Source: an uncultured Planctomycetaceae bacterium
Lineage (GTDB): Bacteria > Planctomycetota > Planctomycetia > Pirellulales > Thermoguttaceae
NCBI GenBank assembly: GCA_964430315.1
Contig: CAYSGY010000002.1
Coordinates: 1 to 58,782 of the forward strand
Length of the DNA: 58,782 bases
Reading direction: 5' to 3'
The notes beneath the pieces are model-generated. The model saw only the letters and a program-made list of their open reading frames with translations. It was not told the DNA's origin and did no database searches. The position numbers were made by a program, and so were the translations under genes. Shown piece after piece: positions 1,886 to 58,782 of this stretch. Numbering within the stretch: the first letter of the stretch is position 1; the number at the start of each line of letters is the position of its first letter.

Positions 1886-1942
1886 GACACGCACCCTCGA
1901 TAGTCAGGATGAAGGATTGCTGCCGGATAAGCTACCCAATTC

Positions 1943-2065: not shown

Positions 2066-5000
2066 TTACGAGGGCGGGAAGTCCTTCGTGCTGCGGTTCT
2101 TCAGGGTGTCGTCGGCGAAGAACAGGAACCAGTCGGATCCTGACCCACCGTAGAGCACGTCGGCCGACTCGTCGTCGATGACGCCGTCGCCCTGCCTCAG
2201 GTTGATCCGCTGATCGGGGGGAAGGCCTTGGGTCAGGTTGGCCACGTGCGACGCGGGCGTGCCCTTGGCGGTCCATTCGGCAAGGATCTGGACAAGGTCG
2301 TCCGGGCTGTCATCGAAGGCTGTTTCGCCGCCGATGAGGATGTCGCCCTTCGAGCCGGCCTTCACGTTGTCGACCCCGAGGCCACCGATCAGCACGCTCT
2401 TGCCCGAGCCGCCGTAGAGCCAGTCGTCCCCGGCTCCGCCCAAGAGCAAGTCGCTGCCGCCGTTGCCGTAGATCGTGTCGTTTCCGTCGCCGCCCCGAAT
2501 GAGGTTCTTCGCCGAGTTCCCGTGGATCAGGTCCGCGAACGCCGTGCCGATCACGTTCTCCAGAGTGCCCCGCAACGCGAGGGTGGCGCCCTCGCCGAAA
2601 ACCATCTGCTTCTGGCCCGTGCTCTTCCTGAGATCAATGGAGACTCCCACCGCCGCACCGGAGAAGTCGAGCGTGTCGGTGCCGCCCTTGTCGATGATGG
2701 TCAGCGGGACGTTGAGGGCCGCGATCGCGTAGGTGTCATTCCCGGCGAGCGACTCAAAGCGGACCTGCTCGACGCCGGCGAACGTGAACTCGGTCGTGGC
2801 ATCGCCCACGGTAATCGCCGCGCCGTCCGACGAGGACTGGAAGAGGTTGTCGCCTGTCGTGCCCTTGATCACGAGGGTGTCGGAGTTCTTCGCTCCCGCC
2901 CCGCCGGTGAAGGCGACGCCGCCGGGAATCGAGGCGATCCCGCCCGCGCTGAGGGCGTTGACATCGACGGTCAGCGTGTCGGTCTTGTTGTCCGCGCCGA
3001 TCACCTCCAGAGAGTTGAGCGGCGAGGAAAGCGGCTGGCTGAGCAGGAGGTTCTTGCCGCTGAGCAATTGGACGCAGCCGGCATCGAACGTCAGGAGGAG
3101 GCTGCCCCCTCCCGCCGGGGCGTTGAGTACAGGATCCGGGCCGTACTGGACGATCGTCGTCTCCGGCTTCGATCGGAGCGTGAGGGTGTTGCCCGTGCCG
3201 AAGACCCTCTGGGACGAGGTACTGGACGGATTGACGCTCACCTGCTGGCTCGCGCCGGTGAAGTCCAAGGTATCGACCCCGCCCGAGTCGCTGATCAGGA
3301 GCGGGACGGGCAGAGCCGTCACCACGAAGGTGTCGTTCTGCTTCAACCCCTCGAAGCGGACCTGTTCGAGGCCGACGCCCTCGATCGAGACTCCGTCGAG
3401 CTCGTAGTGGTCGTCGAGAGACCGAAAGACGCTGCCGGTCGTCTGGCCGTGGAGGACCAGGACATCGCTGCTGCGCCCGGCGCCGCCGTCGAACCGCAGC
3501 CCGCCGGGAATCTCAAACGCGCCGCCGTAGTCGAAGTCTACGGTGAGCAAGTCGACCTTGTTGTCGACCCCCGTCACCGTGAGCGAATTCAGCGTGTTGG
3601 CCGGCTGCTCGCGCAGGACTGCGTTGCTGGACCTGTTGAGCAACTGGACGAAGCCGCGCGCGGCATCGAGTCGCAGCCACAGGTTGTTGGTGCCGCTTCC
3701 CGCGGGGGCCTGGACCACCGGGTCGGGATTGTAGATGACCGTGATGTCCCTGGTCTGGAGGTTGCTGTTCGCCACGCCGTCGGTCACCTGGAAGGTGACC
3801 GTGCGGGTCGACTTGATCGGGGCGGCGCTGGTGTTCCGGTACGTGACGGAACGCAACGCGGCCTGGTAGTTGCCGACCGTGTCGGTGCCCGTCAGCGTCA
3901 GCGTCCCCGTCGTGGCGTTCCACGTCCCCGTAATGGTCGCCGTGTTCGCGAACCACAGCACGTCCTGCCCGTTCTGGTAGTTGGCCGCGATCCGAATCGT
4001 GGCGCCCGCTAGGTTGGCGTGATCGGCGTCGACGGCCGTGATCGACGCGGTGATCGCCGTCGCCGGATCGCCCTCCGTGTAGACCAGGGCCGCGGCCTCG
4101 ATTCCTCCGAGCACGGGCACCGCGTTGACCTCGCTCACGTGGAGCGTCACCGGCCGGTCGGTGTTGGTCACCCCGTCGCTCACCCGCACGGAGAACGCGA
4201 AGTCCCCGGGCCCTTGCGCCTCGGTCGGCGTCCAGGTGAAGACGCCGGTCACGGCGTCGATCGCCGCCCCTGCCGGCGCTCCCACCAAGGAGAACGTCAG
4301 CGTTTGGGCCGGAAGGTCGACGTCGGTTGCATCGGCGTCGAACGTGTAGGGCTGAAGCTCCGGGATCGTCGCGCTGGCGGGAACGTTGCTCAACACCGGG
4401 GCTACGTTGACTTCGTTCACGTGCAACGTCACCGCCTGGTCGGTGTTGACCACCCCGTCGCTCACCCGCACCGTGAAGGTGTAGTCGTTCGGCCCTTGGG
4501 CCTCGGTCGGAGTCCACGTGAAGACGCCCGTCGTCGGGTGGATCGTCGCCCCGGCCGGAGCCCCCACCAAGGAGAACGTGAGGGTCTGGGCCGGCAGATC
4601 GACGTCGGTCGCATTCGCGTCGAACGTGTAGGCCTGAACCTCCGGGATCGTGGCGCTGGCTGGAACCCCGCTCAGCACCGGGGCTACGTTGACTTCGGTC
4701 ACGTGCAGCGTCACCGACTGGTCAACGTTCGCCGTGCCGTCGCTCACGCGGACCGAGAACGTATAGTCGTTCGGCCCTTGCCCTTCGGTCGGAGTCCACG
4801 TGAAGACGCCCGTCGTGGGATGGATCGTCGCCCCGGTCGGCGCTCCCACCAGGGAGAACGTCAGCGTCTGGGCCGGGAGGTCGGCGTCCGTCGCGTCGGC
4901 GTCGAACGTGTAGGCCGCTTGCTCCGGAATCGTCGCGCTGGCCGGAACCCCGCTGAGCACCGGCGCCGTGTTCACCTCGGTCACGTGCAGCGTCACCGAT

Positions 5001-8000
5001 CGGTCGGTGTTCGTGTAGCCGTCATTCACTCGCACCGTGAACGTGTGGTCGAACGCCCCTTGGGCCTCGGTCGGTGTCCAGGTGAAGACCCCGGACGCCG
5101 GGTCGATCGTCGCCCCCGCGGGCGCTCCGACCAGCGAGAAGGTCAGGGTTTGGGCCGGCAGGTCGGAGTCGGTCGCATCGGCGTCGAACGTGTAGGGCTG
5201 CAATTCGGGGATGGTCGCGTTGGCGGGAACACCGGTCAGCACCGGCGCCGTGTTGACCTCGGTCACGTGGAGCGTCACCTGCTGGTCGGTGTTCACCAGG
5301 CCGTCGGTGACCCGAACCGTGAACACGTGGTCGCCCGGCCCCTGGGCCTCCGTCGGCGTCCACTGGAAGACCCCCGACGTGGGATGGATGGTCGCCCCGG
5401 CGGGCGCTCCCACCAGGGAGAACGTCAGGGTCACGCCGGCTCCATCGGAGTCGGTGGCGTCGGCGTCGAAGGTGTAGGGCTGAAGCTCCGGAATCGTCGC
5501 CTCGGACGGCACGTTGATCAGCACCGGGGCCGCGTTGACTTCGAGGACGTGCAGGGTTAGCGTCTGGTCCGCCGTCAACACGCCGTCGCTGACCCGCACC
5601 GCGAACGTGTAGTCGCCCGGCCCCTGGGCCTCCGTCGGAGTCCAGCGGAAGACGCCGGACGCCGGATCGATGGTCGCCCCGGCGGGCGCTCCCACCAAGG
5701 AGAATGTCAAGGTCTGGGCCGGCAGGTCGGCGTCCGTCGCATCCGCGTCGAACGTATACTCCGCCTGTTCGTCGATCGTCGCTTCGGACGGCACGTTGCT
5801 CAGCACCGGCGCCACGTGAACCTCGTTGACGTGGAGGGTCACCGACTGATCGGTGTTCGCCACGCCGTCGCTCACCCGGACCGTGAAGGTGTAGTCCGCT
5901 GCCCCCTGGGGCTCGGTCGGCGTCCAGGTGAAGACCCCGGACGCCGAGTCGATCGTCGCCCCTGCCGGCGCTCCCACCAGGGAGAACGTCAGCGTCTGGG
6001 CCGGGAGGTCGGCGTCCGTCGCGTCGGCATCGAACGTATACTCCGCCAACTCGTCGATGGTCGCCTCGGCCGGAACCCCGCTCAGCACCGGGGCCGCGTT
6101 GACCTCGGTCACGTGGAGCGTGACCGGCTGATCGACGTTCGCCGTGCCGTCGCTCACGCGGACCGAGAACGTGTAGTCGTTCGGCCCTTGCGCTTCGGTC
6201 GGCGTCCACGTGAAGACGCCCGTCGTCGGGTCGATCGTCGCCCCTGCCGGCGCTCCCACCAGGGAGAACGTCAGCGTCTGGGCCGGGAGGTCGGCATCCG
6301 TCGCGTCGGCGTCGAATGTGTATTCGGCCAACTCGGCGATGGTCGCCTCATCGGGGACCCCGCTGAGCACCGGCGGCGCGTTGACCTCGCTCACGTGGAG
6401 CGTCACCGACTGATCGGTATCCACCTCGCCGTCGCTCACCCGCACGGTGAACGTGTAATCGTTCGGCCCTTGGGCCTCGGTCGGCGTCCAGGTGAAGACC
6501 CCGGACGCCGAGTCGATCCTCGCCCCTGCCGGCGCTCCCACCAGGGAGAACGTCAACGTCTGGGAGGGCTGGTCCGCATCGGTCGCGTCGGCGTCGAACG
6601 TGTACTCCGCCAACTCGTTGATGGTCGCTTCGGCCGGAACCCCGCTCAGCACCGGGGCCACGTTGACCTCGGTCACGTACAGCGTCACCGGCAGGTCCGC
6701 ATCGACGAAGCCGTCGTTCACCCGCACCGAGAACGTGAATTCCCCGGGCCCTTGCCCTTCGGTCGGAGTCCACGTGAAGACGCCCGTCGTCGGGTCGATC
6801 GCCGCCCCGGTCGGCGCTCCCACCAGGGAGAACGTCAGCGTCTGCGACGGGAGGTCGGCGTCCGTCGCGTCGGCGTCGAACGTGTAGGCCGCCTCTTCCG
6901 GAATCGTCGCGCTGGCCGGAACCCCGCTCAGCACCGGCGCCGTGTTCACCTCGGTCACATGCAACGTCACCGATTGGTCGGTGTTCGTGTAGCCGTCATT
7001 CACACGCACCGTGAACGTATGGTCGAACGGCCCTTGGGCCTCGGTCGGCGTCCAGTTGAAGACCCCGGACACCGGGTCGATCGTCGCCCCTGCGGGCGCC
7101 CCGATCAACGAGAAGGTCAGGGTTTGGGCCGGCAGGTCGGAGTCCGTCGCATCGGCGTCGAACGTGTAGGGCTGCAATTCGGGGATGGTCGCGCTGGCGG
7201 GAACACCGGTCAGCACCGGAGGCACGCTGACCTCGGTCACGTGGAGCGTTACCTGCCGGTCGGTGTTCACCAGGCCGTCGGTGACCCGGACCGTAAAGGT
7301 GTAGTCCGCCGGCCCATCCGCCTCGCCTGGCGTCCAGGTGAAGACCCCCGACACGGCGTCAATCGCCGCCCCGGCGGGCGCCCCGACCAAGGAGAAGGTC
7401 AAGGTTTGGGCGGGCAGGTCGGCGTCGGTCGCGTCGGCATCGAACGTGTAGGCGGCCAGTTCCGGGATCGTCGCGGTGGCGGGAACGCCGGTCAGCACGG
7501 GGGCCACATTGGTGAAGTTGACCGTAATCGTGGCTGTCCCGGAAGCGGTGCTATAGGCCGTGGGATCGCCGTTGGTGGTCGTGTCGGCGGTGGTGCCGCT
7601 GATGCCGCGCATCCGGTCCCAGGCGCGGAACTGGATCGACGGCTTCGCGCTCACGCCGTCGTCGTAGTAGCCGATATCCGGAACGAAGCGGATGCGGTTG
7701 TTCGCCGTCGCGCCCAGGAGCCGCGACGCCGTCGGCGACGCGGCGCTGAGATCGAGCCACGTGGTTCCGCCGTCGGTCGAGTATTGCCACTGCCCGTGCC
7801 CGGCGGTGTCGACTCCGATCACGGCAATGCCCTCGGCCGAGGTCGGGTCGTCGCAGGTGATGGAGTCGATGCCGGAGCTGGCGATGATGTCGGCGACGGT
7901 GGTGCCGAGGTTGGTCTGGTCGTTCTTGTTGATGGCTGAGAGCTGGAACGGTTGGGTAGTGTTGAGCGTCGGGGCCGTGAGGCCGTGGACGATCGACACC

Positions 8001-11000
8001 TGGTAGTCTTCCACCTCGCCTCGCGGCGGCTGGATGCCGGTCCCTGCGCCCGAGTAGCCCGGATCGCCGGCCGCCAGCGGGGCGTCGGTGAGGCGGAACC
8101 GCACGAAGGTGGTCTTCGACACGGCGGAGTACGGCACGTAGAACGTGAACGTGATCTCTTGATCGCCGCCAAGCAGCGCGCCGTTGGCCTGCAAGGTGGC
8201 GATCGGGCTGCCCGTGGCCGAATTGATATTGTTGCGGATCAACTGCTCGCCGGCATCGGCCCAGTCGCCGTCGCCGTTGAAGTCGATCCACGCGCTCAAG
8301 TAAGCCGACCTGCCGAACTCAACCGGGTTGTGCACGGTCACGGTGATGGTGTTGTTGTAGCCGTTGGTCAGCGTGGCCAGGACGGTTCCGTCCAATTGCT
8401 TCACGCCGTCGTCGTCGACATAGCCTGCCGGAGCGGGCCCGTTGACCGTCCCTCCCAGGTTCTGGCCGTCGCCGGTGGCGGTTTGGTTGGTGTAGGCATA
8501 GGGGGCGCCGTTCTGTTCGTCGAAGTCGACGTTCTGCCCCAGGCAGAAGTTCGGATCGTACAGGTTCCGGGCACCGTTGCGTGCGAGGGTGGTCGGATAG
8601 GTGCTGTTGGGATACTGCGGCAGCTTCGTGACGCCGTCCGGCGCGTCGCCGAAATCGAGCGGCGCCGGCTGGAGGGAGACCTTGTAGTCCTCGATCTCGC
8701 CGAACCCGCGGTTCGCCATTCCGGCGGCCACCGCAGAGACTTCGCCCGCGTACCCCACGCCCGGCACGTCGCTGAGCCGGAACCGGAGGTAGGTGGTCTT
8801 GGCAACGTCCGTCACTCCCCACGGCACGGTGAAGGTGAAGGTGTTGACGCCATTCTGGAGGTTGATGTTGTTGCCGGTGGCCACGTCGATGTTGTCGCTG
8901 ATGAGTTGGCCGGTCGAAATATTGTCGGCGAAACGCTGGTCGCCCGCATTCGACCAGATCGAGGCGTCGTAGTAGTCGATCCAGGCCGAGAGGTAAGCCG
9001 GCTTGCCGGTCGGGTTGTAGAGGGTCACTTGGATCGTGTTTTCTACCCCGACGCGGAGAATCGGCAGGTTGTCTGCCGTCACGCCGTAGGTAAGGAATAG
9101 GACGCCGTCGTCGTCGTTCCCCGAGTTGGGAGAGAGCGCCTGAAGCACGTTCCCGCCGGCGTCGAAGTAGGTCTGGTTGCCGCCCGCCCCGTTATCGTCC
9201 CCCTTGGCGTCGCTGCTCGGCTGACCATCCGGCTCGAAGTCGACGTACTGGCCCAGGCAGAAATTCGGATTGTACCAAGCCGAGGCGCCGTTGCTGGCCG
9301 CCAGCGTCGGATAGTCGGTGGTGATCGACGCATTGTCGGGCGCATCGCCGTAGTCCTTCGGCGGCCCGGCGATGGTGATCTGGTAGTCCTCCACCTCGCC
9401 CTGAGGCAGGTACAGCCCCGTGGCGGAGTAGTTGCCGCCCGGGGAGGCCGCACCACCGCCTGTCGGCAGGAAGCCCATCCCGTCGCTCAACCGCACCCTC
9501 AGGAACGTATTGCCCAGGTTCACTCCGTTGCCAAGCTTGCTCCAGTCGGGGACCACGTGGAACAGGAACGTGCCGCCTGCGGTGACCTCAACGTTGGAAA
9601 TGATCTTCTCGATGCTGCCCGCCGAGTTGTCCCACGTCCCGTCGCCGTTGTAGTCGATCCATGCGCTGAGGTACGCAGGCTGCCCGCCGGGATTCACGAC
9701 CGTGGCCTGAAGGATGTTGTCGACGCCGACCAACAGCCTGAACTGATCGCCGTAGGTCACCAGACGGACCCCGTCGTCATCGGTCCCATCGCCGTTCGCC
9801 GTGGCGCTGGCGTTGCCGGGCCACTCGGAATCCACGTTTGTGCCCAGGTACAGATTCGGCCCGTTCGGATCGACGAAGTTCCGCGGCCCGTTGCTGGTGG
9901 CCAGCGTCTTGTGCGTGTCCGGAGCGTCCCCGAAGTCGGCAAACTGGACGATCGTGACCTGGTAGTCCTCCACCTCGCCGGGCAGCGGCGCCCCGGTCGT
10001 CCCGTCGGTCATCACCCCGGTGGGACCGGTCATCGCCTCGCTGCTCAGCCGTACCCGCATCGCCGTCGTTTGGTCGGCCACGTTCCACGGCATCACCAGC
10101 GTGACCGCCGTCGAGCCGTCCTGGGTCACGGAGATGGCCTGGTTCGAGCCGGTCGGACTGAATGCGGCCAGGAGCACGTTGTTCTGAATCACCTGCTCGC
10201 CGCTGTCCCACGTCCCGCTCCCGTTCAGGTCGATCCACACGCTCAGGTAGGGCGTCAACTGCGTCCGCGACGCGCCGGCCACGTCCTGGTCCGGGTTGTA
10301 AACCGTCAGCGTCAGGGTGTTGTTGACCCCGGCCACGAACGTCAGCTTGTTCGGATCGTTGGTGTAGACGTTGGTCACTTCCACCCCGTCCTCGTCGTCC
10401 GAACCCGTGTTCGGGACCCCGGTCGTCGTCTTCAGCCCATTGCGCAGCACCGTCTGGTCCCGGCCCGCCGTCAGGTCGTCGGTCGTCGCCGTGCCGTCCA
10501 ACGCCGCGATGGCGTCCTCGAAGTCCACGTACGCGCCCAGGTGGAAGTACGGATCGTAAAGCGCCCGCGCCCCGTTGCTCCCAGGCAGCGTGCCGTACGT
10601 GTCCAGCGCATCGCCGTAATCCATCGGCGGGGCCGCCACCGTGATCTGGTAGTCCTCCACCTCGCCCTGAGCCAGGTAGTGGCTGCCCGTCCCGGTGCCC
10701 GTCTCCACCGCTCCCATCCCGCTGGTGTCGCTTAGCCGCACCCGCAGGAACTTCGACCCGGTCGGCACGCTGTACAGCGGCGTGAACGCAAACAGGTTCA
10801 CCCCGTCGCTGACCGGCTGATCGTTCACGATACGCTCCGAGTCGTCCCACGTCCCGTCGCCGTTGTAGTCGATCCACGCACTGACGTACGCGTCGGCGGT
10901 GTGCTTGATTACATCCACTCGGAGGATGTTCTCCACCCCCGCACGCACCTCGAACTGATCGCCGTAGGTCACCAGACGGACCCCGTCGTCGTAGCTGTCG

Positions 11001-14000
11001 CCGCCGGCGTCGGCACTCGCGTTGCCGGGCCACTCGGAATCCACGCTTGTGCCCAGGTACAGATTCGGTCCGTTCGGATCGACGAAGTTCCGCGGCCCGT
11101 TGCTGGTGGCCAGCGTCTTGTGCGTGTCTGGAGCGTCCCCGAAGTCGGCAAACTGGACGATCGTGACCTGGTAGTCTTCCACCTCGCCGTGCGACGGATT
11201 GAGCGGATCGGGGTTGGCGTCCGCCGTCAGCCAGACCCGCATGGTCGTGGGCCCTTCGAGAGCATTCCACGGCACGACGACGTGGTCGATCTCGATATCG
11301 TCGTGGAGGGTTCCCGAAGGCACACCGGCGAGGGTGAGGAGGTTGTAGTTCTCATAGCCGCCGCTGCCGTCGTCGCGTTGGCCGATGACGTGTTCGGTGG
11401 ATTCAAAGGTGCCGTTGCCGTCGAAGTCGATCCACACGTTCAGGTAGGCGGTCGTGCGGACCCGCGGATCGCCGAACACATCGGTGAGCGGGTTGTGGAT
11501 GCTGACGGTCAGCTTGTTGTCGACGCCGGCCACGAAGGTCAGCTTGTTGGGATCGCTGGTATAGTCGTTGGCGACCGTGACCCCGTTGTCGTCCGAGAGG
11601 GTGGTCACGATTAGGGCGTCGAGGGCCTTCGCAACCGTTCCCGACGGATCGAACACCCGCACGCTCAGTTGTCCGTCGGTCACCGTGACCGTCCTCGTTT
11701 CCGTGGCCGTGGTCTCGGCGCCGGTGACGATGTCGAACGGCGCCAAGGACTCGATCTGGATGCGCACCGAATCGCCCGCTGCATTGCCCGCCGTCAAGGT
11801 GACGACGTAGGTGCCGTTGGGCACGTCGAGGACGAAGGTGCCGTCCCTGGTGGCGTTGTAGTCGTCGGTGAGGGCGTCTCCTCCGGCATCTCCCGAGGTG
11901 ACGGCTCCGAGCAGCCAGCCGTAGCCCAGGGCGGCGCTATAGGAAGTCTCCGCGACCGCCGTATAACCGGCGGCAAGCCTCTCCGGAGGCGCGCCCGGTG
12001 TGCCGAAGTCGAACTGCGCCGGGATCCTCGGGGGCGACGCGGGGATGTCGCGCTGGTAGGTGCCGCCGACGTGGGAGTCGTCGCCCGAGGCATCGTCGGA
12101 CGAGCGGGGGGCCGCCTCGAAATCGACGTACCCGCCGAGGTGGAAGTCGGGGTCGTAGATGCTGTTGGCCCCCGCGGCCTCGCCGGCGCCCGTGTCGTAG
12201 CTCGCCGCCGCGTCGCCGAAGTCGAGCGGCGCCGAGAGGATCGTCACGGGGTAGTCCTCGATCTCGCCGACGTCCGGCACGCCCGAGGTGGGCCCAGTGG
12301 GCAGCAGGCCCGAGGCATCGGCGCTGAACCTCGCGCGGAGGAACGTGATCGGCTGGGCCACGACGTCGTCCGGCACGGTGAAAGTGAAGGTCTTCTTCTC
12401 GCTGGCCGTTACTTCGATGTCGTTCTCAAAGAGCCTCTCGCTGGAGTCGAAGACCCCGTCGAAGTTGTAATCGATCCAGGCGTTGAAGTACCCTGTCACG
12501 CCTAACTCGTTGACGAAGTCCACCTGCATCTCGTTTGTCGCGCCGGGCCGGACGAGGAAGGTGTCGGCCGTGCTGCCGTAGGTGGTCAGGACCACGCCGT
12601 CGTCGCCGAAGTCGCCGCGGCCCGGATTGGCCGGGTCGCCCAGCCGGGCATCGGTCTCGTAGTCGACCGTCGGGCCGAGGTGGAACCGGTAATCGTACAG
12701 GTTCTTCGCGGCGTTGGTGCCGCTCACGGCCTTCGACGTGGGGTAGCCCATCGCCGGGTACGAGTTCCCGCCGAAGGTGAACGGCCGATCCGGCGCGTCG
12801 CCGTAATCGTAGGGCTCCGCGAGGACGGTGATCTGGTAGTCCTCGACCTCGCCGAAGGGGGCTTCGCCCGCGCGCGGGCCGGCGGTCAGCACGCCGTCGG
12901 GCCCGAGACCGGTCTCGCCCGGCGCGCTGAGGCGGAAGCGAACGAACGTCGGTCCGTCCGTCCTCGCGTCGGCCGGGACCGCGATGGCCGGCAGGCTGCT
13001 GCCGTCGAAGACGTTGTCGCCGATCTCGACGGCCAGATCGCTCATCACATGCTCGCCGGGATCGGTGAAGTCGCCGTCGCGGTTCCAATCGATCCACACA
13101 TTGAGGATCGGCTGCTGGCCCGCGTAGGCCCCGGAGGGCGAGCCCACCGTGACCTGGAGGCTGGCGTCCAGGCCGGGCGAGAAGGGGGAGAGGAAGGCCA
13201 CGCCGTCTTCGTCGTTGACGCCGCCGGCCGAGCTCGCATTGTCGCCCATCGCGTCGGACGAGGGCTGGCCGTCGCTCTCCGCGTCGACCAGGGCGCCGAG
13301 CGTCAGGTCCGGCACGCTTACGACCAGGGCCTGAATCGTCGCGCGCGGGTCGTCGGAGCCGCCGAGATCGTACAGGCGGACGTTCAACTGTCCGTCCTTG
13401 ACCGTGACCCAATAGGTGTGCGTCACCGGCGTCGCGGTTGCCGCGATCGCGTCGACCTGTTTTCCTTCCAGGGCGATCCCGGCGAGGTTGTGGTCCGTGC
13501 CGCTGGGATCTCCGATCGTCACCGAAACCTGGTACGTGCCGTTGGGCAGATCGACGGCAAACGTGCCGTTGTTGGTGGCGTTGTAGTCCCGTGCGAGGGC
13601 GTCAACTCCACCCGCGTCGTTCCACGAGCTGACGGTCCCGCTCTGCCAGCCGTAGGTCAGAGAGCCGGCGATGCCATAGCGGGTCGCCTCGGTGACCGGC
13701 GTGTAACCGCCCTCCACCGGGGAGCCGGCCGTGCCGAAATCGAAGCGGGTCGCGTCCGTGGGGCTGAAGCTCACGTCGTGACGGGCCCCATAATAACCCC
13801 CGCCGGCGTTGTAGACCGTCCGGTAGTTCGTGTTCGGCGCGTCGCCGAAGTCCTCGACCGACCTGGCGATTCGGATCGAATAGTCTTCCACCTCGCCGTC
13901 GGGCGCGGTCCCCACGGGCGAGAGATCGTCGGCGGTGGAGAGGCGGAAGCGGGCGAAGGTCACGCGCTCCTCAAGGCCGGCGGGCACGGTGAAGGAGACG

Positions 14001-17000
14001 TAGTTCGTGCCGACCTGCATCGGCGCCGCCGTCACCACTTGCTCGTTCGCGTCGTCCCAGTCGTGGTCGCCGTTGAAATCGATCCAGGCGCTGAGGTACC
14101 CGGCGTCGGCGCCCACGGGCAGTCCGTCCTTGGACACGCTGGCGGTGAAAGTGACGCTCTGGCCGATGACCAGCACATTGCTGAAGACGATCCCGTCGTC
14201 GTTCAGGTCGCCGCCGTCGCTGTTGGGCACTTGATAGGCGTCGTCTTCGCCCGTCACGCCGGCGCCCAGGTAGTATTGCCCCTTGACGGCGTGCGCCGCA
14301 CCGTTGTCGCGCTCGAGCGAGGGGTACTTGCCCGATTCATAGTAGGGGGCGTCGCCGAAATCGAGCGCGTAGGTGGCCACCGTGAAACTGGTGCTCTCGG
14401 GGACGCTCGGGCGGCTGAACTCCAGGGGGTTCCCGGCCAGGTCTCGGATCGTCCGGTCGGCGGGGTCGAGCGTGACCTCGTACAAAGGGTTGAGCGTGAT
14501 CTTGTAGATCCAGTTCCGGTCCCACACGCCCTGGCTCGGGTAGATCGTGATCTTGTCGTTCGTGACGTCGTACGAGTAGAGGTAATCGACGTCGCCCACG
14601 AGCGTCGTGGAGTCGGTATACGTCGTGTAGTCGACGTAGCCGACCGGGTTGACCTTCTCGATCTTGATGATGCTCGACAAGGCGGGTTGGGTCTTGTCCA
14701 ACGTGGCGTCGTCGATCCCCACGCCGTTGATGTCGTAGAGTTGAAGGGTGAAGGCATTGAGGTACGACTGGTGGACTTCCACGTCGAGCAACGCGCCGTT
14801 CACGTCCAGGGTGCCGTTGTCGGCGGGGTTGACGATGGCCACGGTCGGGCCGGTGGTGTCGATGCGGTCGATCGCCCCGCGGTCCTTGTAGACGTTCTGG
14901 CCCACGCCGCCGGAGGGCGCCACGTCGGCGTCGTCGGCCCGCTTCTGGCCATAGTAGTCGTAGTCCGGGGCCCAGATCGGCGAGTCGGGGATGCCCAGCG
15001 GCAGCCGAATGGCCGACATCTCGGGGCGTTCGGCCAGTTGGTCGAGCGAGCTGTCGATGGCCTGGCTGCCCGCCGCCGGGATGAAATTCCGCTGCGATTC
15101 GTTGACGAAGGGCGACTGGTTGACCCCGAGTTGGATCGCGTAGCTGCCGACTCCCACGTTGCTGTTCTGCACGGCGTTGCCCTGGTACAGGGTGGCCTCG
15201 ATCACGGTCGAGGTCGAGGTGCCGTCGACATAGATGCCGCGGCTCAGCCGGGCGACGATGTTGTTCATGAGCGTGGGGCTGGCGTTCTGGTCCACCAGGA
15301 TGCCGGTGCCGCGCTGGGCGGCGGCCGGCAGGGCGGGGTCGGTGGGGGCGAAGCCGTAGATCGTGTTGTTCACGATCCGTCCGAACGGCACCGCCGCCCG
15401 GGGCCCGGCCGCGTTGTCGCCGCTGAAATGGATCCCGCCGCCGTTCTGGTAGTCCTGGTTCCGCCCGTTGCCCACCAGCACGTTGTTGCTGATCATGATC
15501 CCCGGCACGTACCCTTCGACGTTCGGCCAGTTGAGCGAGACCTGCGGCAAGGGGAAGCCCGGATGCGCCGAGTTCGGCTGGGCGCTGTCGCCCGGCACCC
15601 AGTACTTCTGGCCGCTGTCCCGCGCGCTGGAGTCGACGTTGACCCCGAAGTACGCGCAGTCGCTGATTCGATTGGCGTCGATGACGATCTGGCCCTGGGA
15701 ACGCGGGTGGTTCGCGTCGCCGTAGCCGGTGTTGATCGCGTGGTACACGCCGTTGGAGGTCCCGGTCAACTGGTTCGCCAATCCCCCGCCGGAGCTCATC
15801 CAGTAGATGTCGTACTCGCCCGTGGCGTTGGAGGCGAAGACCACCTGGCTGCCGAAGATGTCGATGGCCGGCTCCACGTCCGACGAAGACTCGGTGGTCA
15901 GCCACGGATTCGCGCTGCCCGCGATGATCCAGACGTCGTTGTTGCCCCGGCGGTCCGTCTGGTAGACGATCACGTCGAGCCCGCCGTACGAAGGATAGGT
16001 GTCCCTCGCGGGGTTGTTCGTCATGTTCGTCGGGTTCGAGCCGTCGGAGTTCATCACGTAGATCTCTTCGTTGCCATCCACATCCGAAGAGTAGACGATC
16101 TTCGAGCCGTCCAGATTGAACGCCGGGTGGCGGTCGGCGAAGCCGGTGTTGTTGGTCAGCTTGGTCGGGTTGGGCGTGGGGTAGTTGAGCTCCAGCCGGT
16201 AGACTTCATAATCTCCGTCCTCGTCGCTGGAGTAGATCAAGTAGGCAGTCCCGGTCGCTTGCTCGACGCCGAACTTGGCGTCGACGACATTGCCGCCGCC
16301 GCCGTTCACCTTGTTGAGCAGGCTGTTGATCACGAGTCCATAGCCAATCCCCGTCGTGGAAGCCCCGGGAACCGGCAGCAACTTAAGCTGGTACTTGCCG
16401 GACCCCGTCTTGGACGAGTAGAGAACGCAGTCGCCCACGAGAACGTTCGAAGTCATGTCGATCGTGAGGTAGATGGGCTCGATATTGTCGACGTTCGTGG
16501 CGGTGTTCGTGAGCTTGACAACGTTCGACCCGTCGGCGTCCATGACGTAGATCTCGTTGTTCCCGTCCTCGTTGGAGACGTAGGCGATCTTCGTCCCGCT
16601 TTTGGCCGGAGTGATCGTATCGATGTTGAACGACGGGTAGTGCTTCTGCGAGATGGCACCGGCGTCGATGGGGTAGGCCTTGTACGAGGAGCCGTAGTTG
16701 TTGTTCTCGATGCCGCTCACCCAGGTCGCGCCGAACAGGTCCACGTGGTTGCTCGTGCCGGCCGGGAGCGAAGCGGTGACGTCGATCCAATCGGCGCTCG
16801 TCTTGTTGTTCGTGTAGTAGCTGTTGATCTGGCCGGCGATCTTCGCGGCCACGCTCGCGGCGGATTCGTTGGCGCCGATCGAGACCGTGAACGTGTGCTT
16901 GTTGACGCCGTCGCCGATGGTGAAGGTCTTGTTGCTGGCGCTTGCGCCGCCGGCCGGGGCGAGGATCGAGATCGCGTCGGTGAACCGGTCGTTGGTATCG

Positions 17001-20000
17001 TAGGCCGCCCAGAGGTTCAGGAGGTTCGGCGTGGTGCCTTGGGGGCCCGGGTCGTAGGTGCCGTAGGGGGCGGCGGCCCGAATCTCGACCTGGTACGCCC
17101 CGTCCGTAATCGCAAACTGGTAGGTGCCCGACATGTACTTCGTACTGTAGGGATACGCGACGTCGTATCGCGTTCTCGAGTCCGCGGCCTGGAAGACGTT
17201 CGTGGTCGTCTGGATCGCGGGCGACCCGGTGACCATTTCCCCCCGCTCCGTGCAGCCGATGATGATGTCGTCGACGTAGAACCCGTCGTAGTGATTGCTC
17301 TGCCCGGGGAGATTGTCCAGGGTGGGGGTGCTGTAGTTGTTGCCGGTATCGGTGTAGATCCGCGTGTCGAACGAGAATCGGAGGGTGAGGCTGGTTTCAC
17401 CGGCGTAGTTGCTCAGATCGATCTTAGCCTGACGCCACCCGGTGTTGGCGTGGAGCTTCGTGCCGCCGTTCTGGCGCACGGCCTGGTTGATCGAAGGATT
17501 GCTCACCGAGCCGCCTTCCATGTCGACGCTCGTCGCGATGACCGTCCAGGTGGAGCCGTTGTCTTTGGAGATGTAGACCTTAGCGCCGTCGTACTGATCG
17601 CCCCCCTGCGTGCTCAGGAAGTAGGTGAAGTAGAGCGCCGGCTTATCGGCAGCGCCGTACCCGTAGAGGCTGAAGGAATCGGTGGTCAGGGTGCCGTAGG
17701 CCCCGCCGGGCACGTCGTAGGTGCCGCGTCCGCCGGAGGCCGCGGACGCCGAGAGCCCGCTGGCGGTCAGCAGGGAAGTATCCGCGGTGAAGACCGAGGA
17801 ACTCCGGTCCGTGTAATTGATGGCCCCAGGCTGGTTGTTGTAGCCGGTCCAGTTCGTCCAGGTCATCGACCTCCCGTTGACGGTTGCGGCCCTCGGGTCC
17901 TCCAATCCGAAGTAGAAGCTCAAGTTGCCGGTGGAGCTGGCGGTGGCGCTGGGATATCCGCTCTGGGTCGGACCCCCGGAGGTGGGCGAGCGGCTGCTGT
18001 CGTAGGTGGCGCTCAGGCCGTGACCGGCGTCGGTGGCACGGGAGAGCGAGGCGTGCCAGAGGTTGTAATCGACGTTCGTGAACGCCAACCCGGTCGCCGA
18101 GGTGAGGCCGGTGCTGATGTTGTTGGCGTTGCCGCTGAAGACGTTTTGGAGAGTGCCGTTGGTATCGAACGCATAGACCCTCCCGTTCGACGTCGTCGCG
18201 AAGAGGAGGTCTTTGTATGCGCCTCCTTCGACGTTTTGAGGGCCGACCGTCAGTCCGCTGAATGCCACGCCCAGGTTCGCGACGAGCACCAGCCTCGGAC
18301 CGTTCGCGGCATCCTTGACTACGGAATTGGGGAAGTTCGGGTCGGTGCTGCCGTTGGTGTCGTCGGCGGCGCTGGCGCCCCACAACGAAGTCGACAAACT
18401 GCCCGCCGCCGCGTTTCCGATCGTGTAGGGGTTGCCGCTGGCATTGGTCATGCGGTAGAGATTTCCGGCGGCGTCGACCGCGTAGAAGTAGCCGTTCGCA
18501 AACGCCAGCCCCGTGATGTTCGCCGTAATCGTATCGAAGATCGCCAACGGGATGATGTCGCTGGTGAGACGCGTGGTGGTCGAGGTTCCCGGCTTCTGCA
18601 CCGCGGTCCCGTCGGGACCGAGCAGGTACAGCAGGTTGTGCTGGTAAACCTCGTACGCGTCGGACGGGTTGTTGGGGTGGGTGCCGCTGCTGGGCATGTT
18701 GCCGATGGCCAGCATGTAGCGCGGGTTGCTCCCGGACGAGGTCGAGCCGGTCACGACAGGCGTGCTGGTGGGGTCGTAGGCCATCGCGTTGAAGCTGATC
18801 CCGAGGTCGTAAGACACGGCCGCCGAAGTGGCCGGGTTGGTCGCAGCCTGTTCGCCCGTATTGATGCCGTTGTTGGCGCTCGGCGTCGGGTTCGCGGCGA
18901 CCGTGACGCCCGTGTTGAGCTCTTGCAGACGCCCGACGTTCGCCTTCCCTGTCCCCGAACCCGCGACGGCCTGGAGGTGCCCGTCGTTGCGCATCGCCAG
19001 GTCCTGATACACGTTTCCCAAGGGAAGGGTCGCCGACGTGCCGGTGACGTCGCTTGTCCGGGTGCCCGTGTACGGGTTGACCGTGAAAAGGTCGCTACCA
19101 CTGAGCACGTAGAGGCTCACGTCGCCGAAGGTGAGGTCGTCGGCGTAGGTGTTCAGTTCCGTGATCTTGGTCTGGAAACTGGCGCTGTTGTCGTACTGCG
19201 ACGCCCAATCGTCGCCGTTGGTAACATTGAACAACAGGCCCTGGGCCGAGTCCTTGGCGACGCCGGAGTAGTCGCTCACGCCGATGTGGTCCTCGATGAT
19301 CCGCTGGACCGAGTTGACCGGCTCGCGGCGCAGGAGGCGGCTGGCCACGCTGGTGGCGTCGGTCCGGTCCTGGGCGTATTCGTCCAGGATCGAGGGGACC
19401 TCGTAGCGGTTGGCCACGGCCACGTTGTACACGGTCGGCGAGACGCCGAAGGGGGTGTTGGCCGTCGGCAGGTAGACCGGGCCGATGAGCGGATCCAACG
19501 GGCCGAACGAGCCTGCGTCGAGGTTCGTCGAGTCGGTTCCCACGTTGGGCCGCTGCTGGTCGTCGGCCACGCTGGAATCCTGGCCGATGAGGATCAACTG
19601 GTTGTTGGCGTCGAAGACATAGACCGACGTGTCGGGCCGGTTCATGCCGCTGGCGTAGTCGAGGTCGATCGTGACCGGCCACTGCGTCCTGTTGGCGCCG
19701 ACCGCCTGGATCCCGTTGAGCCCCATCTGGAACTGGGTGAAATCGACGTCGCTCATCCCGGAGAGGCTGCCGCCCCAGGCGATCACTTCCTGGTCGGTGG
19801 CCAGGAGGTTGCCGAGCTGCTGGGTCGTGCTCACGGTGTTGTTGGACGCCCCGCCGGTCGCCTCGATCTCGATCGACTCGCCGAGGATCGGCGAGTGCAT
19901 GGGCTGGCCGATGATTTCGATGCCGTTGGTGGCGTAGCGGATGTCGGCGTGGGTCACCGTGCATCCGGCGAACTGCTGCTCCTCCTGGAGCCGGATCTGC

Positions 20001-23000
20001 AACTGGTAGGCGCCCGTCGGGTTGGCCTGCTTCACGGCGCTGGTGCCCGCGTTGAAGCGAATCGTCGAGCCGCTAAGCAGGGTGAGTTTCACGGCGCCGT
20101 CGACCGCCTCGGCGGTGACGCCCAGAAGCGTCGCGACGTTGGCGGCGTTGATCTTGTCACGCACCAACTGGGCGATCTGGGCCGGCGTCTCGTTGCCGAC
20201 ATATCCGATAATCGAGGGATCGGTCCCGGCATAGCCTAGCTGGAACTTGAACTTCACGAACTTCGCCGTCGAGGTCGTTGCGTCGGCTCCCGCGTCGAGC
20301 GAGAACTTCATGCTGTTCGGCACCGCGGCGCTGTTCGCCAGAATGCCGTCGCTGAGGAAGAAGTACTGGCCGTTCTGGATCTGGCTGCCGGAGGGCATGT
20401 CGAGCATGTTCACCGCGGCATGGACGCGCACGTAGTAGTCGGGCAGGCGCAGGGGGTCGAGCGCGTAGGGCAAGACGACGCGGAAGCCGGCGTCGCGCGG
20501 GTTGGTCGTATAGAAATCGCTGACCGTCCAGACCGAGTTGCGCAGGGTGCGGGCCAGGCCGTAGTCGCCTTCGAGGTAGCCCTGGGGATCGTCGTTCGCG
20601 TCGTCGGGGATCTCCGTGCCCGAGTCGTCGGACCAGGCCAACACGTTGCCGTTGAAATCGACCAGTTCGACCTGGGTGTCCAAGGAGAACTCGGTGCGGT
20701 CGATATCGATCCAAACCTCGCTTCCCGGCGTGCCTGTGAACCGATACATGTCGGCATCGGACGGCGCGTCGTGGCGGATCGTGCCCTGGACTTGGAAGCC
20801 GAGCCGCTGGACGTCGTCGCCCGACTTGGAATCGGGGGCCAGCGTGCCCAGATACTGCGATTTTGCCGGGGTGGAATTGGCGTCGGCGCTGCTGCCGACG
20901 GTGGCCTCCAACTCGTTGATCGCGGCGACATTGATGTCGTTGGCATAGGTGGCGATCTTGATGCTTCGCCAATTGCCGGGTTGCGGAGTTGTGAGGCTGC
21001 CGTTGCCGTTGGTGTCGTACTGCGGGGCCTGGTTGCCGCCCGGCTTGTAGCCGGCGGGAACCGTGTCGTCGGCGAGCGAGGTGAACACCACGGGATGGCT
21101 TCCGGTGCCGATCACGTGGATCGTGCCGCCGATGCGGTCATCGATCTCCGTGGGGGTCCCCTGGGCCGTGAAGCCGGCGCTGGCGCCGGAGAGCTTGATG
21201 ACCAGGCTTTCCGTGTCGCTGCTCTGGAGCCGAAGGCCGCCGTAGTGGTGGAAGTTGTCGATGACGATCTCGCTGAACAAGACGTGGGCGATGTCGGTAT
21301 CGTCCCAGACCGATTCGTTCTGAAGAACGCAGTTGCCGCGGACGAGCAATCCATTGAGCCTTTGTTCGTTCCCGGTGGGGCTCTGGTTGGGGCTCTGGTT
21401 CAGGAGGTTCAACCGGATCAGCGGGCCGTAGTTGGCGTCGAACCGGCCGAAAGCGCCCAGCGGCAGCGACTCGCCGGAGGCGCCGGCGGAAGCCTCCGGG
21501 TTGGGCGTGCTGCGCCCCCAGTCGGCGGTGACGTTGGCCGACATCGCGCCGGCGTCGATGCTCATCACCGCGCCCTGGTTGTTGAGGAAGGTGTTGCCCA
21601 CGATCACGGGCTGGGAGCCGCGAATGAAGATCGTCGAGTCGTCGGTCCACCCGCGCCCGTTGCGGTTCCCCGCCGCCTGCGCGGCGTTGTACTCGAAGAG
21701 GCTGTTGGTGATTCTCGCGTCGGCCTGGCGGATCTCGATCGGGTTGAAGGTGGCGGAACTCCCTTCGATGGACGACAGCCCGCCCGCATAGTAGACCCGG
21801 GCCCAGTCGAGGCTGGCTTTGGCCAGCGGGCCGAGACTCAAGCCGGACCAGTTCCCCGCAGCGGCGGAGGTCGACGACTTGTCGTTCGACGTGTCGAACG
21901 TGCCGCCGGCGCCGTACCGGTCGTCGAACAAGGAGGTGAAGATCACCGGGGCGTTCTGGGTCCCCTCGGCGATCAGGTGCCCGCCCATCTCCGTCTCGAT
22001 CCGGCTGCTGCTGAACTTCAGCACCACGCCCGGATCGACCTTCAAACGGGCGCTGATCCCGCCGTTGATCAATCCCCCGGGAGAACTCGAAATCTTCAGG
22101 ACTTCCTGAATCACGTGGACGATATCGCGATCGTCGAACGTGGCGGCGACGTCGAGCGTGTCGACCATGTTGCCGTAGCGGTCCCGGGAAATACGGACGA
22201 ACATCCCGTTGATGCTGTTGTCGGCGAGGTAGTTGCCGTGGATGTCCGGACCGACCCGGTCGTAGTCGGCGGCGAAGTTGTACGGGTCGCCGGTGAGAGT
22301 GCTCCACTCGAACCGCGATTCCTCGAAGCTGTTCGGATCGGCCGAGATGGCGGCGTCCTTGCTGCGGGAGATGACGTTGAAGGAGACCGTGGGCCGGGCC
22401 CGGACCAGATGGACCGCGTCGTAGGTGTCCGTCACCCCGAAAACGCTCACCTGGCCGCCGCCGTAGCGGATGTCGGCGTGGTTGACGTAGTTGAGGAAGA
22501 TCCCGTCCTGCTCGTAAACCTGCCGACTCGGATCGGTGCTCATCGCGTCGTAGTCGACGTTGTTCCGGAACACCAGCCCGCCCCAGTCGCCCTTGGCGGG
22601 GAGTGTGGTGTTGGTGAACGTGTCGTTCCCGACCGACTGATCGTTGTAAGAAGTGAAGTAGACGCTGTTGCAGGGCGTGCCGAGGACCTGGAGCACGCCC
22701 CGGCTGCGATCGCCGGCCAACCCCGGCATGGAACTCCCCACGTCGATGTTGGCCTGGCGAAGCTTGATGACGGCGCCGGCGTCGATCATCACGGTGACGC
22801 CCCTGGGGACGTCCATCGTGGCGCCGTCGCTGAGCGTTTCGCCGTAATTGTTGTAGCCGATCTCGTAGGCCAGGTTGTCCTGCAGGGTGTCGGTGATCGA
22901 GCTGTTGCCCGCGTCGAAGAAGACCGAGCGTCCGGACAACATCACCTGGGAGCCGGACCGAGTCGCCGTGATCTTCAATCGCCCGGCGGCGTTCTCCGCG

Positions 23001-26408: not shown

Positions 26409-26437
26409 TTGACGGATTTGCGGCTTTCTTCTATCAA
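26409..26437 (+). promoter_or_regulatory. Sigma70-like promoter of giant B: TTGACG - 17 nt - TATCAA
   Basis: Plus strand 26400..26442 reads GCAAATTGT TTGACG GATTTGCGGCTTTCTTC TATCAA GACAG, the mirror copy of the giant-A element. The -10 ends 90 nt from the ATG. Confidence 0.6.
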
Positions 26438-26513
26438 GACAGGAACGGACAGAGAGTACGCGCCCAGGCCGTCTTTGGCTGTTTTCGCCGGGGGCTGGCC
26501 TGCCGGTTTCTCC

Positions 26514-26519
26514 AAGGAG
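26514..26519 (+). promoter_or_regulatory. Shine-Dalgarno AAGGAG of giant B
   Basis: CCAAGGAGTCACTCGATG, with a 7-nt spacer to the ATG at 26527. Confidence 0.7.
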
Positions 26520-26526
26520 TCACTCG

Positions 26527-57831: not shown

Positions 57832-58782
57832 CTAACGGTTGATCTCGATCCCGATGCCAAGTCCCTGGAGGAAGCAGAGGTCGCGATTCATGCCCCGCAG
57901 GATGCCCATGGCGTGCGTCTGGTGGAGCGTGTAGTCGACCATCCGCGAGGGACGAGCCAGTTCGCCGATGTACATGCCGTTCCAGCCGGCCTTGAATGAC
58001 ACCTTGTTGGTCAGCATGTACTTCGCCTCGATGCGAAGTTCGACGACCGGGCTGAAGACCGACATGTGGGCCACGTCGTTGACATCCATCGTCGTCAAGG
58101 CCAAGGGCATCATGATCGACCTTGGGAACGTGGCGGCACCGAGATTCAGGTCCGAGGCCACCACCCCATTGAGTTGCACCGACTGGGCATTCCATGCCGC
58201 CATGAATTTGCCCAACAACGACAGTTCCCAGCGGTCGTTCGTCTTGAACCAGCGCAGTCCGAGTTGAGGGCCGAACAGCCGGTTGGCGGCGTAGTTGGTG
58301 AAGATGGTGTCGGCCAGCATCGAGTTGACGTTCCTATTGTCCGGCGGATCGCCGTTGGCGCGGACGTCGTACTGCTCGTCGAATTCGAGGTACCGGACCC
58401 CGAAGAACCATTCCCACATTCCGCCGCGCTCTCCAGGATGCGTCCGTACCAGGTAATTGAACTCCGTGCCCCAGGCCCTCGACGCGATGTCCATGGTGGC
58501 GTTGTCAAAAGCGACGCCGCCGAAGACGGGATCGCCTCCGAAGCTCGTCTGGATCGACAGGTGAGGCAGGTTGTTCACGCCCCAGTTTTCATCATGGAAG
58601 TAGGACTCCACTCCGCGGTCGACCTGGCCCTGGCCTGACCAATGGAGTTGGAAGTAGCTGAACAGCCACCCCTGGTGCCCGTTGATATGCCCCAGCTCAA
58701 TCCGTTGGCCCGGAGTGAACTGGTTTGTCATGAAGCTCGTGTCCATCGTGGTGCCCTGGGTCGAGGTCTGATTGGGATCATC
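57832..58782 (-). CDS. Outer-membrane beta-barrel protein, BBP7-like; N-terminus probably beyond the right window edge
   Basis: The track lists ORF 57832..58746 (TAG stop at 57832..57834). The frame stays open upstream of the listed Met to the window end (DDPNQTSTQGTT-MDTSF...), so the true start is probably outside the window. It has amphipathic strand patterns (WELSLLGKFMAAWNAQSVQLNG, VELRIEAKYMLTNKVSFKAGWNGMYIG), is rich in W/Y/G/N, and has a GVRYLEFDE motif reminiscent of planctomycetal BBP7 barrels. Family recalled from memory. Confidence 0.55.
   Translation of the reverse strand, partial: DDPNQTSTQGTTMDTSFMTNQFTPGQRIELGHINGHQGWLFSYFQLHWSGQGQVDRGVESYFHDENWGVNNLPHLSIQTSFGGDPVFGGVAFDNATMDIASRAWGTEFNYLVRTHPGERGGMWEWFFGVRYLEFDEQYDVRANGDPPDNRNVNSMLADTIFTNYAANRLFGPQLGLRWFKTNDRWELSLLGKFMAAWNAQSVQLNGVVASDLNLGAATFPRSIMMPLALTTMDVNDVAHMSVFSPVVELRIEAKYMLTNKVSFKAGWNGMYIGELARPSRMVDYTLHQTHAMGILRGMNRDLCFLQGLGIGIEINR

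Follow-up and report, generated by a model that had tools for sequence, protein, structure and literature searches.

Complete domains predicted to be nested in GEVED-type modules of two giant planctomycete proteins

Two giant genes with nine-module arrays

The window analysed here, i.e., the whole stretch of 58,782 nucleotides (nt) of contig CAYSGY010000002.1 (assembly GCA_964430315.1) from an uncultured Planctomycetaceae bacterium, has a G+C content of about 65% and contains two divergent giant open reading frames (ORFs), designated A (25798..2066, minus strand, 7910 amino acids (aa)) and B (26527..57657, plus strand, 10376 aa). The proteins A and B are paralogues with a common N-terminal signal, which is probably planctomycete-specific, and each of them carries an array of nine modules related to the GEVED domain. 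Sequence searches and structure modelling make it very probable that seven of these 18 modules are interrupted in their N-terminal half by a complete autonomous domain, the interrupting domains (guests) being nested inside a GEVED-type module (host) of about 160 aa. The N-terminal regions of the two proteins (25441-25798, minus strand, and 26527-26886, plus strand) have the common start MGIW...KPRGLR(L/M)E..E.R.LL, and the spacer between the divergent genes is 728 bp long.

The motif GE[VI]EDY occurs exactly nine times in A (aa 3968-5927, nt 13897..8003, minus strand) and exactly nine times in B (aa 5666-8586, nt 43522..52299, plus strand), the number expected by composition being 0.0003-0.0005 per protein. 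The motif D[FYW]GDA is also found exactly nine times in each protein (0.05-0.08 expected), located 12-16 residues past the preceding GEVEDY; the equal counts and this fixed position mean that the start and end anchors alternate strictly and that the arrays are head-to-tail series of DFGDAP...GEVEDY units. The initial annotation, made from the sequence alone, had placed nine modules at 8003..14365 in A and at 43006..52299 in B, and the motif count bears this out: positions 14365 and 43006 are the leucine of the module-1 motifs LDFGDAP (A) and LDYGDAP (B), while the tyrosine codon of module 9 ends at 8003 (A) and 52299 (B). The motif spacings given there were reproduced to within 1 nt (1044, 585, 1080, 522, 687, 579, 699 and 681 nt in A; 1098, 588, 1143, 669, 1527, 1542, 1539 and 654 nt in B). 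The arrays are as follows:

7985..14365, minus strand: A array, nine GEVED-type modules (aa 3812-5938), each from D[FY]GDA to GE[VI]EDY plus about 6 residues; PF20009 in nine stretches, E 2e-103; matched by the full-module hidden Markov model (HMM)
43006..52317, plus strand: B array, nine GEVED-type modules (aa 5494-8597); motifs, Pfam and full-module HMM

The repeating unit

The Pfam model PF20009 (GEVED, 78 positions) covers the last 80-100 residues of the modules in 18 cases out of 18, unsplit and from model positions 1-2 to 77-78; the scores are 25.8-65.4 bits in 17 modules and 23.0 bits in B5, just below the gathering score of 24.4 bits. In 166 uninterrupted modules from about 55 other GEVED proteins, the distance from DFGDA to GEVED is 135-215 aa, mostly about 150 aa, and this distance defines the repeating unit; judging by sequence conservation, the unit is a module of about 160 aa, longer than the Pfam GEVED model. 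The consensus of the 166 modules reads DFGDAPD..YPTL...NGARH.....LG..VD.E.DGQP...A.GDD....DDEDGV, followed by the Pfam core. The N-terminal half of the module, running from DFGDAP through YPT, NGARH, LG..VD.E, DGQP and A.GDD to DDEDGV, would be loop-rich and acidic with two short strands, and the C-terminal half, the sole part covered by PF20009, would form a β-sandwich ending in GEVEDY. Structurally and in evolution, the Pfam GEVED model thus appears to represent only about half of the unit. A search with a profile of simple modules against all Protein Data Bank (PDB) sequences gave no match at E ≤ 1.

Split matches to the full-module model

An HMM of the full module (162 positions) was built from the 166 uninterrupted modules described above, to which the window contributed none. 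It matches 11 modules whole (positions 2/3-161) and four modules in two pieces, namely, A2 (residues 3983-4014 and 4162-4325, positions 4-31 and 27-161), A4 (residues 4524-4576 and 4734-4880, positions 2-54 and 56-161), B2 (residues 5681-5710 and 5868-6041, positions 4-29 and 27-161) and B4 (residues 6241-6293 and 6489-6618, positions 2-54 and 73-161). The gap between the paired pieces is 147-195 aa, and the break lies at about model position 29 in A2 and B2 and at about position 55 in A4 and B4. The paired pieces are complementary and non-overlapping, which argues for one interrupted module rather than two complete domains. MAFFT alignments of the hosts alone contain one clean gap per insertion site. 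The inserts lie between G(A/P)RH and LG..VD.E in A2 and B2 and between (S/L)GDD and DDNGV in A4 and B4, and the host sequence resumes after each of them; these are the places indicated in the initial annotation, whose view of modules 2 and 4 of both proteins as single hosts interrupted at two sites by a lectin-like domain agrees with the complementary split matches.

In B6, B7 and B8 the HMM matches the C-terminal piece only, starting from positions 12, 19 and 10, respectively, and a DxGDAxD strand precedes the insert. The aromatic residue and the GDAP motif are kept in B6-B8, and also in a related locus (L002, described below), although they are about 300 aa away from the rest of the module. 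The pieces of the interrupted modules and their guests are listed below.

13751..13861, minus strand: A2 host N-terminal piece (aa 3980-4016, DFGDAP..GARH); HMM positions 4-31, E 1e-4; AlphaFold 2 predicted local distance difference test (pLDDT) values 86-88
13313..13750, minus strand: A2 guest, galactose-binding-like (aa 4017-4162), site 1; PF21254 E 9e-11; guest HMM aa 4018-4162, E 3e-64
12818..13312, minus strand: A2 host C-terminal piece (aa 4163-4327, LG..VD.E.DGQP..GEVEDY); HMM positions 27-161, E 4e-39; AlphaFold 2 pLDDT 82-98
12029..12232, minus strand: A4 host N-terminal piece (aa 4523-4590, DFGDA..LG..VDFE..SGDD); HMM positions 2-54, E 3e-8
11600..12028, minus strand: A4 guest, galactose-binding-like (aa 4591-4733), site 2; PF21254 E 2e-10; guest HMM aa 4595-4733, E 2e-59
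11153..11599, minus strand: A4 host C-terminal piece (aa 4734-4882, DDNGV..GEVEDY); HMM positions 56-161, E 4e-15
43663..44109, plus strand: B2 guest, galactose-binding-like (aa 5713-5861), site 1; PF21254 E 2e-9; flanking HMM matches 4-29 and 27-161
45451..45909, plus strand: B4 guest, galactose-binding-like (aa 6309-6461), site 2; PF21254 E 2e-10; flanking HMM matches 2-54 and 73-161
47089..48000, plus strand: B6 guest, TolB-like PD40 β-propeller (aa 6855-7158), after the first host strand LDWGDAPD; PD40 E 9e-14, AlphaFold 2 and Foldseek
48616..49560, plus strand: B7 guest, PD40 propeller (aa 7364-7678), B6 site; host C-terminal piece from HMM position 19
50158..51054, plus strand: B8 guest, PD40 propeller (aa 7878-8176), B6 site; host C-terminal piece from HMM position 10

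Guest domains

The guests of A2, A4, B2 and B4 (143-153 aa) match the galactose-binding-like family PF21254 (AGA-YXIM_GBD; E 9e-11 to 2e-9) with scores of 42.3, 41.2, 37.8 and 40.9 bits, respectively; these four sandwich guests and three free copies in B all exceed the Pfam gathering score of 27. The lectin-like character and the length of about 150 aa that had been ascribed to the inserts thus hold for modules 2 and 4; the long modules B6-B8, left unexplained before, contain propellers. Elsewhere, the PF21254-type guest occurs in tandem arrays of three to six copies in planctomycete-type proteases and β-helix proteins (54 proteins); the guests of the window are 40-54% identical to the planctomycete tandem-array copies and differ from them in being nested in another domain. 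The free copies in B are the following:

39724..41466, plus strand: free-standing galactose-binding-like copies (aa 4400-4549, 4698-4819 and 4829-4980); guest HMM E 8e-37, 5e-31 and 8e-42; PF21254 in three stretches

One partial copy lies beside the three free ones (aa 4400-4980), upstream of the GEVED array, and this region adjoins PD40 repeats at aa 4119-4417, so that both types of guest occur in B in nested as well as tandem form.

Modules B6-B8 (47056-51663, plus strand) each contain a PD40 propeller of 299-315 aa between D[WY]GDA(P/F)D and YPT (PD40 E 2e-12 to 5e-15); the three propellers are 37-51% identical among themselves and have no counterpart in the A array. A Foldseek comparison of the AlphaFold 2 model of B6 with the TolB propeller (PDB code 1c5k) gave E 2e-14, a root-mean-square deviation of 2.8 Å over 280 columns and a target-normalised template modelling score (TMt) of 0.57. 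The PD40 repeats and the fold are like those of the C-terminal six-bladed β-propeller of TolB (PDB codes 1c5k and 2ivz), although the identity is about 18% and the copies in the window lack the N-terminal domain of TolB; TolB is a periplasmic component of the Tol-Pal system, whereas the propellers of the window appear from the sequence to be embedded in a giant extracellular protein. The closest sequence relatives of the propeller are free-standing TolB-like proteins of about 350 aa, none of them with GEVED. Since the sandwich occurs in tandem and free copies and the relatives of the propeller are free-standing, both guests are, on the evidence of sequence comparison, autonomous domains.

A giant toxin-like protein, P0292 (4721 aa), contains about ten diverged guest-type domains among RHS/YD-type repeats, so the PF21254-type domain has been shuffled into very different scaffolds. 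The start of the guest, (R/Q)FDFGT, resembles the host start DFGDAP (e.g., at 13730-13750 and 13840-13855, minus strand), and when free guest sequences were added, MAFFT misaligned the host DFGDAP onto the guest FDFGT; the resemblance may be coincidental or may reflect a first-strand motif common to both.

Structure prediction and the integrity of the host module

AlphaFold 2 modelling of A2 used an alignment of hosts only (59 rows, with two guest sequences), and the modelling of B6 also had host-only depth. In the A2 model, residues 1-30 have pLDDT values of 86-88, strands are assigned to residues 2-5 and 27-31, the C-terminal part of the host has values of 82-98 and the predicted template modelling (pTM) score is 0.72. 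The mean pLDDT of the B6 model is 83.9 and its pTM score is 0.69; the detached LDWGDAPD segment (residues 1-10) has a pLDDT of 91, with a strand assigned by DSSP at residues 3-5. As only the host parts had alignment depth, these values are read as host-host packing, and the high confidence of the detached N-terminal pieces most likely reflects their docking onto the host sandwich in the models. A Foldseek search with the A2 model against the PDB found only generic two-sandwich matches (GH2 enzymes, CDTb) with a query-normalised score (TMq) of about 0.2, and the host fold was not recognised.

Several observations weigh against the picture of nested guests in a secreted stalk. In every case the Pfam GEVED core is uninterrupted, and the models show the N-terminal half, to which all the sites belong, mostly as loop. 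That the N-terminal host piece touches the C-terminal one is deduced solely from pLDDT and DSSP. The A2 guest itself is modelled poorly, with pLDDT from below 50 to 78 and below 50 in the first half, as no more than two guest sequences were in the alignment. Protein B contains, by Pfam and motif searches, no RTX repeats of the kind that ends protein A. A split match of the Pfam GEVED model, which had been put forward as a test of nesting, was likewise not found; PF20009 covers only the C-terminal 78 positions, and the guests sit in the part that Pfam does not model.

One may also consider that there is no nesting at all, DFGDAP...DDEDGV being a separate small calcium-binding linker or mini-domain before GEVED and the guests being ordinary tandem domains between or within flexible linkers. 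The whole and unsplit Pfam matches in 18 of 18 modules, the position of every insertion site upstream of the Pfam core, the architecture of the N-terminal half in the AlphaFold 2 models (only two strands of 3-5 residues and long loops) and the presence of extra domains between complete modules in the GEVED proteins P0078, P0093 and P0104 would all suit such an arrangement. Yet each N-terminal half is accompanied by exactly one C-terminal half at a constant distance, and the two never occur apart, both in the 166 modules from the protein search and in 115 whole modules at the genome loci described below; the breaks fall at five positions of the segment, including HMM position about 80, past two sandwich strands; conservation to either side of every break is not something that a linker would need; an 11-residue piece, 300 aa away, keeps its motif and is predicted with a pLDDT of 91; and 78 residues are short for a complete sandwich. 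A linker with tandem domains is therefore quite unlikely, and a single host module interrupted by a guest is preferred.

Relatives and distribution of the split modules

A scan of genome contigs, taking one genome per species, gave 35 loci with 115 whole modules detected by HMM; the nearest relatives of the giants are encoded in metagenome-assembled genomes (MAGs) of Planctomycetota (Thermoguttaceae, Planctomycetaceae, Pirellulales and Pirellulaceae). Among the relatives, split modules were found in only three loci, all from Planctomycetota (L001, L002 and L004); the 31 other loci (Verrucomicrobiota, Bacteroidota and others) have whole modules only.

In the L001 and L002 orthologues of B1 (module 1, 68-72% identity), a sandwich guest is located at HMM position about 80, between the strand ..TFTVTA and LLNVWVDW; B1 itself (42967-43557, plus strand) is uninterrupted, unlike these orthologues. 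Conversely, the orthologues of B2 in L001 and L002 have no guest, though A2 and B2 carry one. The modules of L002 are orthologous to B1, B2, B3, B4, B8 and B9 (54-72% identity), with a different guest occupancy: one module has two guests, one of which has the same junction as B4 (GDDxxIGGTYRW...PQTDDNG), another has two tandem guests at the B4 site (GDD..DDNG), and a propeller is found at the site of B6-B8 (site 0). In L004 (Pirellulaceae MAG JAWKTM010000036.1, residues 752-964 of the translated segment), a guest of about 190 aa (GFEDPSLAGWNVNGNAGHV...LLLDNVHV) occupies the A2 site, between GPRH and LRLG..D; a Pfam search of this guest gave no match. As occupancy differs among orthologous hosts, the sequences indicate that guests have been gained, lost, duplicated and relocated between loops in the course of evolution in Planctomycetota.

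The nested relatives came solely from the genome-contig scan, not from the protein-database searches. A word-indexed protein search, which returned nothing longer than 1577 aa, revealed one protein with both domains (P0066), where the guest is not nested. A search with A4 against 1.84 billion representatives gave 778 matches, with the best stretches all in the guest, and the nested module was absent from the 12 of these 778 that were examined, including the nine with the longest best stretches.

Giant repetitive genes, with relatives all found on MAG contigs, raise the question of whether the long modules are assembly or frame artefacts of a repetitive metagenomic gene. Both ORFs are unbroken over 7910 and 10376 codons, however, the nested architecture occurs again in independent MAGs, and its two occurrences in the window, at 40-60% identity, do not represent collapsed repeats; the probability of an artefact appears negligible.

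Collinearity of the arrays and age of the nesting

When module identities were computed with the guests excised from the hosts, modules 1-4 proved to be reciprocal best matches between the two proteins (A1-B1, A2-B2, A3-B3 and A4-B4 with 47, 60, 60 and 51% identity, respectively), while modules 5-9 have no one-to-one partners, and B5-B8 all have A9 as their best match. The arrays, described earlier as collinear throughout, are thus collinear in modules 1-4 and not in modules 5-9. A5 (10631-11152, minus strand) and A7 (9365-9943, minus strand) are 66% identical at the protein level, which suggests a recent duplication inside the A array; the first ~35 residues are almost identical (FADFGDAPDTHKTLATSNGPRNFVDPNGPNLYLGT), and the DNA identity over the first 200 nt is 80%. 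The equal number of modules, nine in A and nine in B, may be coincidental.

It had been proposed that the nesting predates the A/B duplication. This is plausible from the sequences, because the sites and junctions are common to both proteins (e.g., GDDxxVGGTY...DDNGV), and it needs one loss in the L001/L002 lineage; the guests themselves, 40-48% identical in every pair, carry no positional or orthology signal, and the proposal has to accommodate the uninterrupted B2 orthologues in L001 and L002. The alternative does without a nested ancestor: each protein would have acquired its guests independently, or gene conversion would have copied them between A and B once the duplication had taken place. 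The flat guest identities would be expected in that case, since pairs from the same protein (A2i-A4i 47%, B2i-B4i 46%) stand slightly above the positional pairs (A2i-B2i 43%, A4i-B4i 41%); the guest-free B2 orthologues of L001 and L002 are closer to B2 (63-66%) than A2 is (60%), and occupancy is labile among orthologues. Against it are the identical sites, the homologous junction residues in A4, B4 and modules 4 and 6 of L002 (GDDxx(V/I)GGTY(Q/R).. and ..DDNG(V/L)T), and the reciprocal best matching of A2 with B2 and of A4 with B4 as hosts; low guest identity speaks against a recent conversion, and a single loss in the lineage of L001 and L002 is a simpler assumption than gaining a guest twice at one and the same residue. 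Independent entry or conversion is consequently considered the less probable course of events, and nesting before the duplication is retained as the plausible one.

Comparison with known systems and possible function

Split domains are already known from RTX adhesins (Graham et al. 2024, Proteins 92:933; Sherik et al. 2024, PMC10865825; AhLap, PMC12077191; bioRxiv 10.1101/2025.09.30.679566), where guests usually emerge after the first strand of a BIg extender domain, and β-roll, vWFA and carbohydrate-binding module (CBM) hosts also occur (PMC12077191, PMC10865825, bioRxiv 10.1101/2025.09.30.679566). The proteins of the window resemble them in several ways: they would likewise be giant fibrillar surface proteins, and protein A has terminal RTX repeats; a β-sandwich stalk domain is interrupted by a complete guest, often after the first strand as in B6-B8, and the host fold is then completed, as is predicted for the window; the guests diverge fast, even inside one protein; and CBMs are the commonest guests. 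The differences concern the host, which is a GEVED-type module and not a BIg extender, β-roll, vWFA or CBM; the sites, at least five permissive ones in the GEVED host family compared with 'after first strand or before last two strands'; the guests, which include a TolB-like propeller and tandem double guests; and the setting, a nine-module array in the phylum Planctomycetota. In addition, RTX repeats are absent from B, and a retention module was not identified in the proteins of the window, although no search was aimed at one.

According to the sections of Barringer et al. 2023 (PMC10952558) used here, the GEVED domain (PF20009) takes its definition from CshA NR3; it serves in stalks, is always found together with a lectin-like adhesive domain on its upstream side and is followed by the next domain 12-17 residues past the GEVED motif. 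The C-terminal 80-100 aa or so of every module in the window match this model end to end, and the spacing to the next domain, 12-16 residues, is close to the 12-17 given in the same sections. By that account, NR2 of CshA lies upstream of GEVED and is not nested, unlike the guests described here, and the Pfam model covers about half of the unit found in the window. No mention of an interruption of the GEVED module was found in the literature on the domain, as represented by those sections of PMC10952558. On this basis the GEVED-type module as a host appears to be new, in line with the initial annotation; the nesting principle, by contrast, is already published. The same applies to the idea of GEVED as a display scaffold, which matches the published split-domain principle of RTX adhesins and is not a new concept; for the proteins of the window it is suggested by analogy.

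By this analogy, the stalk of a giant protein, secreted and surface-located, would consist in part of the host modules, and the guests would project sideways as ligand-binding heads, probably for glycans; surface display, ligand binding and calcium binding by the acidic loops may be the roles of such an arrangement. Perhaps, and this is put forward tentatively, the loop-rich N-terminal half might have specialised as an insertion platform, with five or more permissive sites, on which Planctomycetota swap, duplicate and relocate binding heads (lectin-like sandwiches, propellers and unassigned domains) between orthologous stalk modules. If so, the specificity of these surface giants would be diversified in a cassette-like way that goes further than the fixed split-domain pairs described in Proteobacteria. 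No new mechanism is revealed; the split-domain principle of RTX adhesins gains a new family of hosts, new types of guest and a further phylum. Since occupancy varies among orthologous hosts, they offer a natural experiment on the gain and loss of nested domains, and the split D[FYW]GDAP...GEVEDY module gives a practical search rule for ligand-binding heads in opaque planctomycete proteins of 8,000-10,000 residues.

Termini of the giant proteins and flanking regions

The C-terminus of A contains four GGxGxD RTX nonapeptide repeats (aa 7769-7889, within the last 150 aa; PF00353 E 5e-11, PF08548 E 4e-7):

2069..2494, minus strand: C-terminal RTX nonapeptide repeats of A; PF00353, PF08548 and GGxGxD motifs

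As A ends in RTX repeats, the sequence suggests type I secretion for this protein. Arrays of He_PIG, Big_9 and cadherin-like domains are located in A, C-terminal to the GEVED array. The C-terminal region of B (56875-57654, plus strand) has NIDO, Calx-beta and SdrD_B matches, and A and B may be unlike in secretion or anchoring.

Downstream of the giants, the ORF at 57832-58746 (minus strand) has a match to BBP7, a putative β-barrel porin family (E 2e-14); the ORF at 47-1903 (plus strand) has no Pfam match. Very long ORFs run antisense to the giant genes, at 12680-20239 (plus strand, 2519 aa) and at 26434-37716 (minus strand, 3760 aa), and they are probably a by-product of the high G+C content and codon bias rather than evidence of genes.

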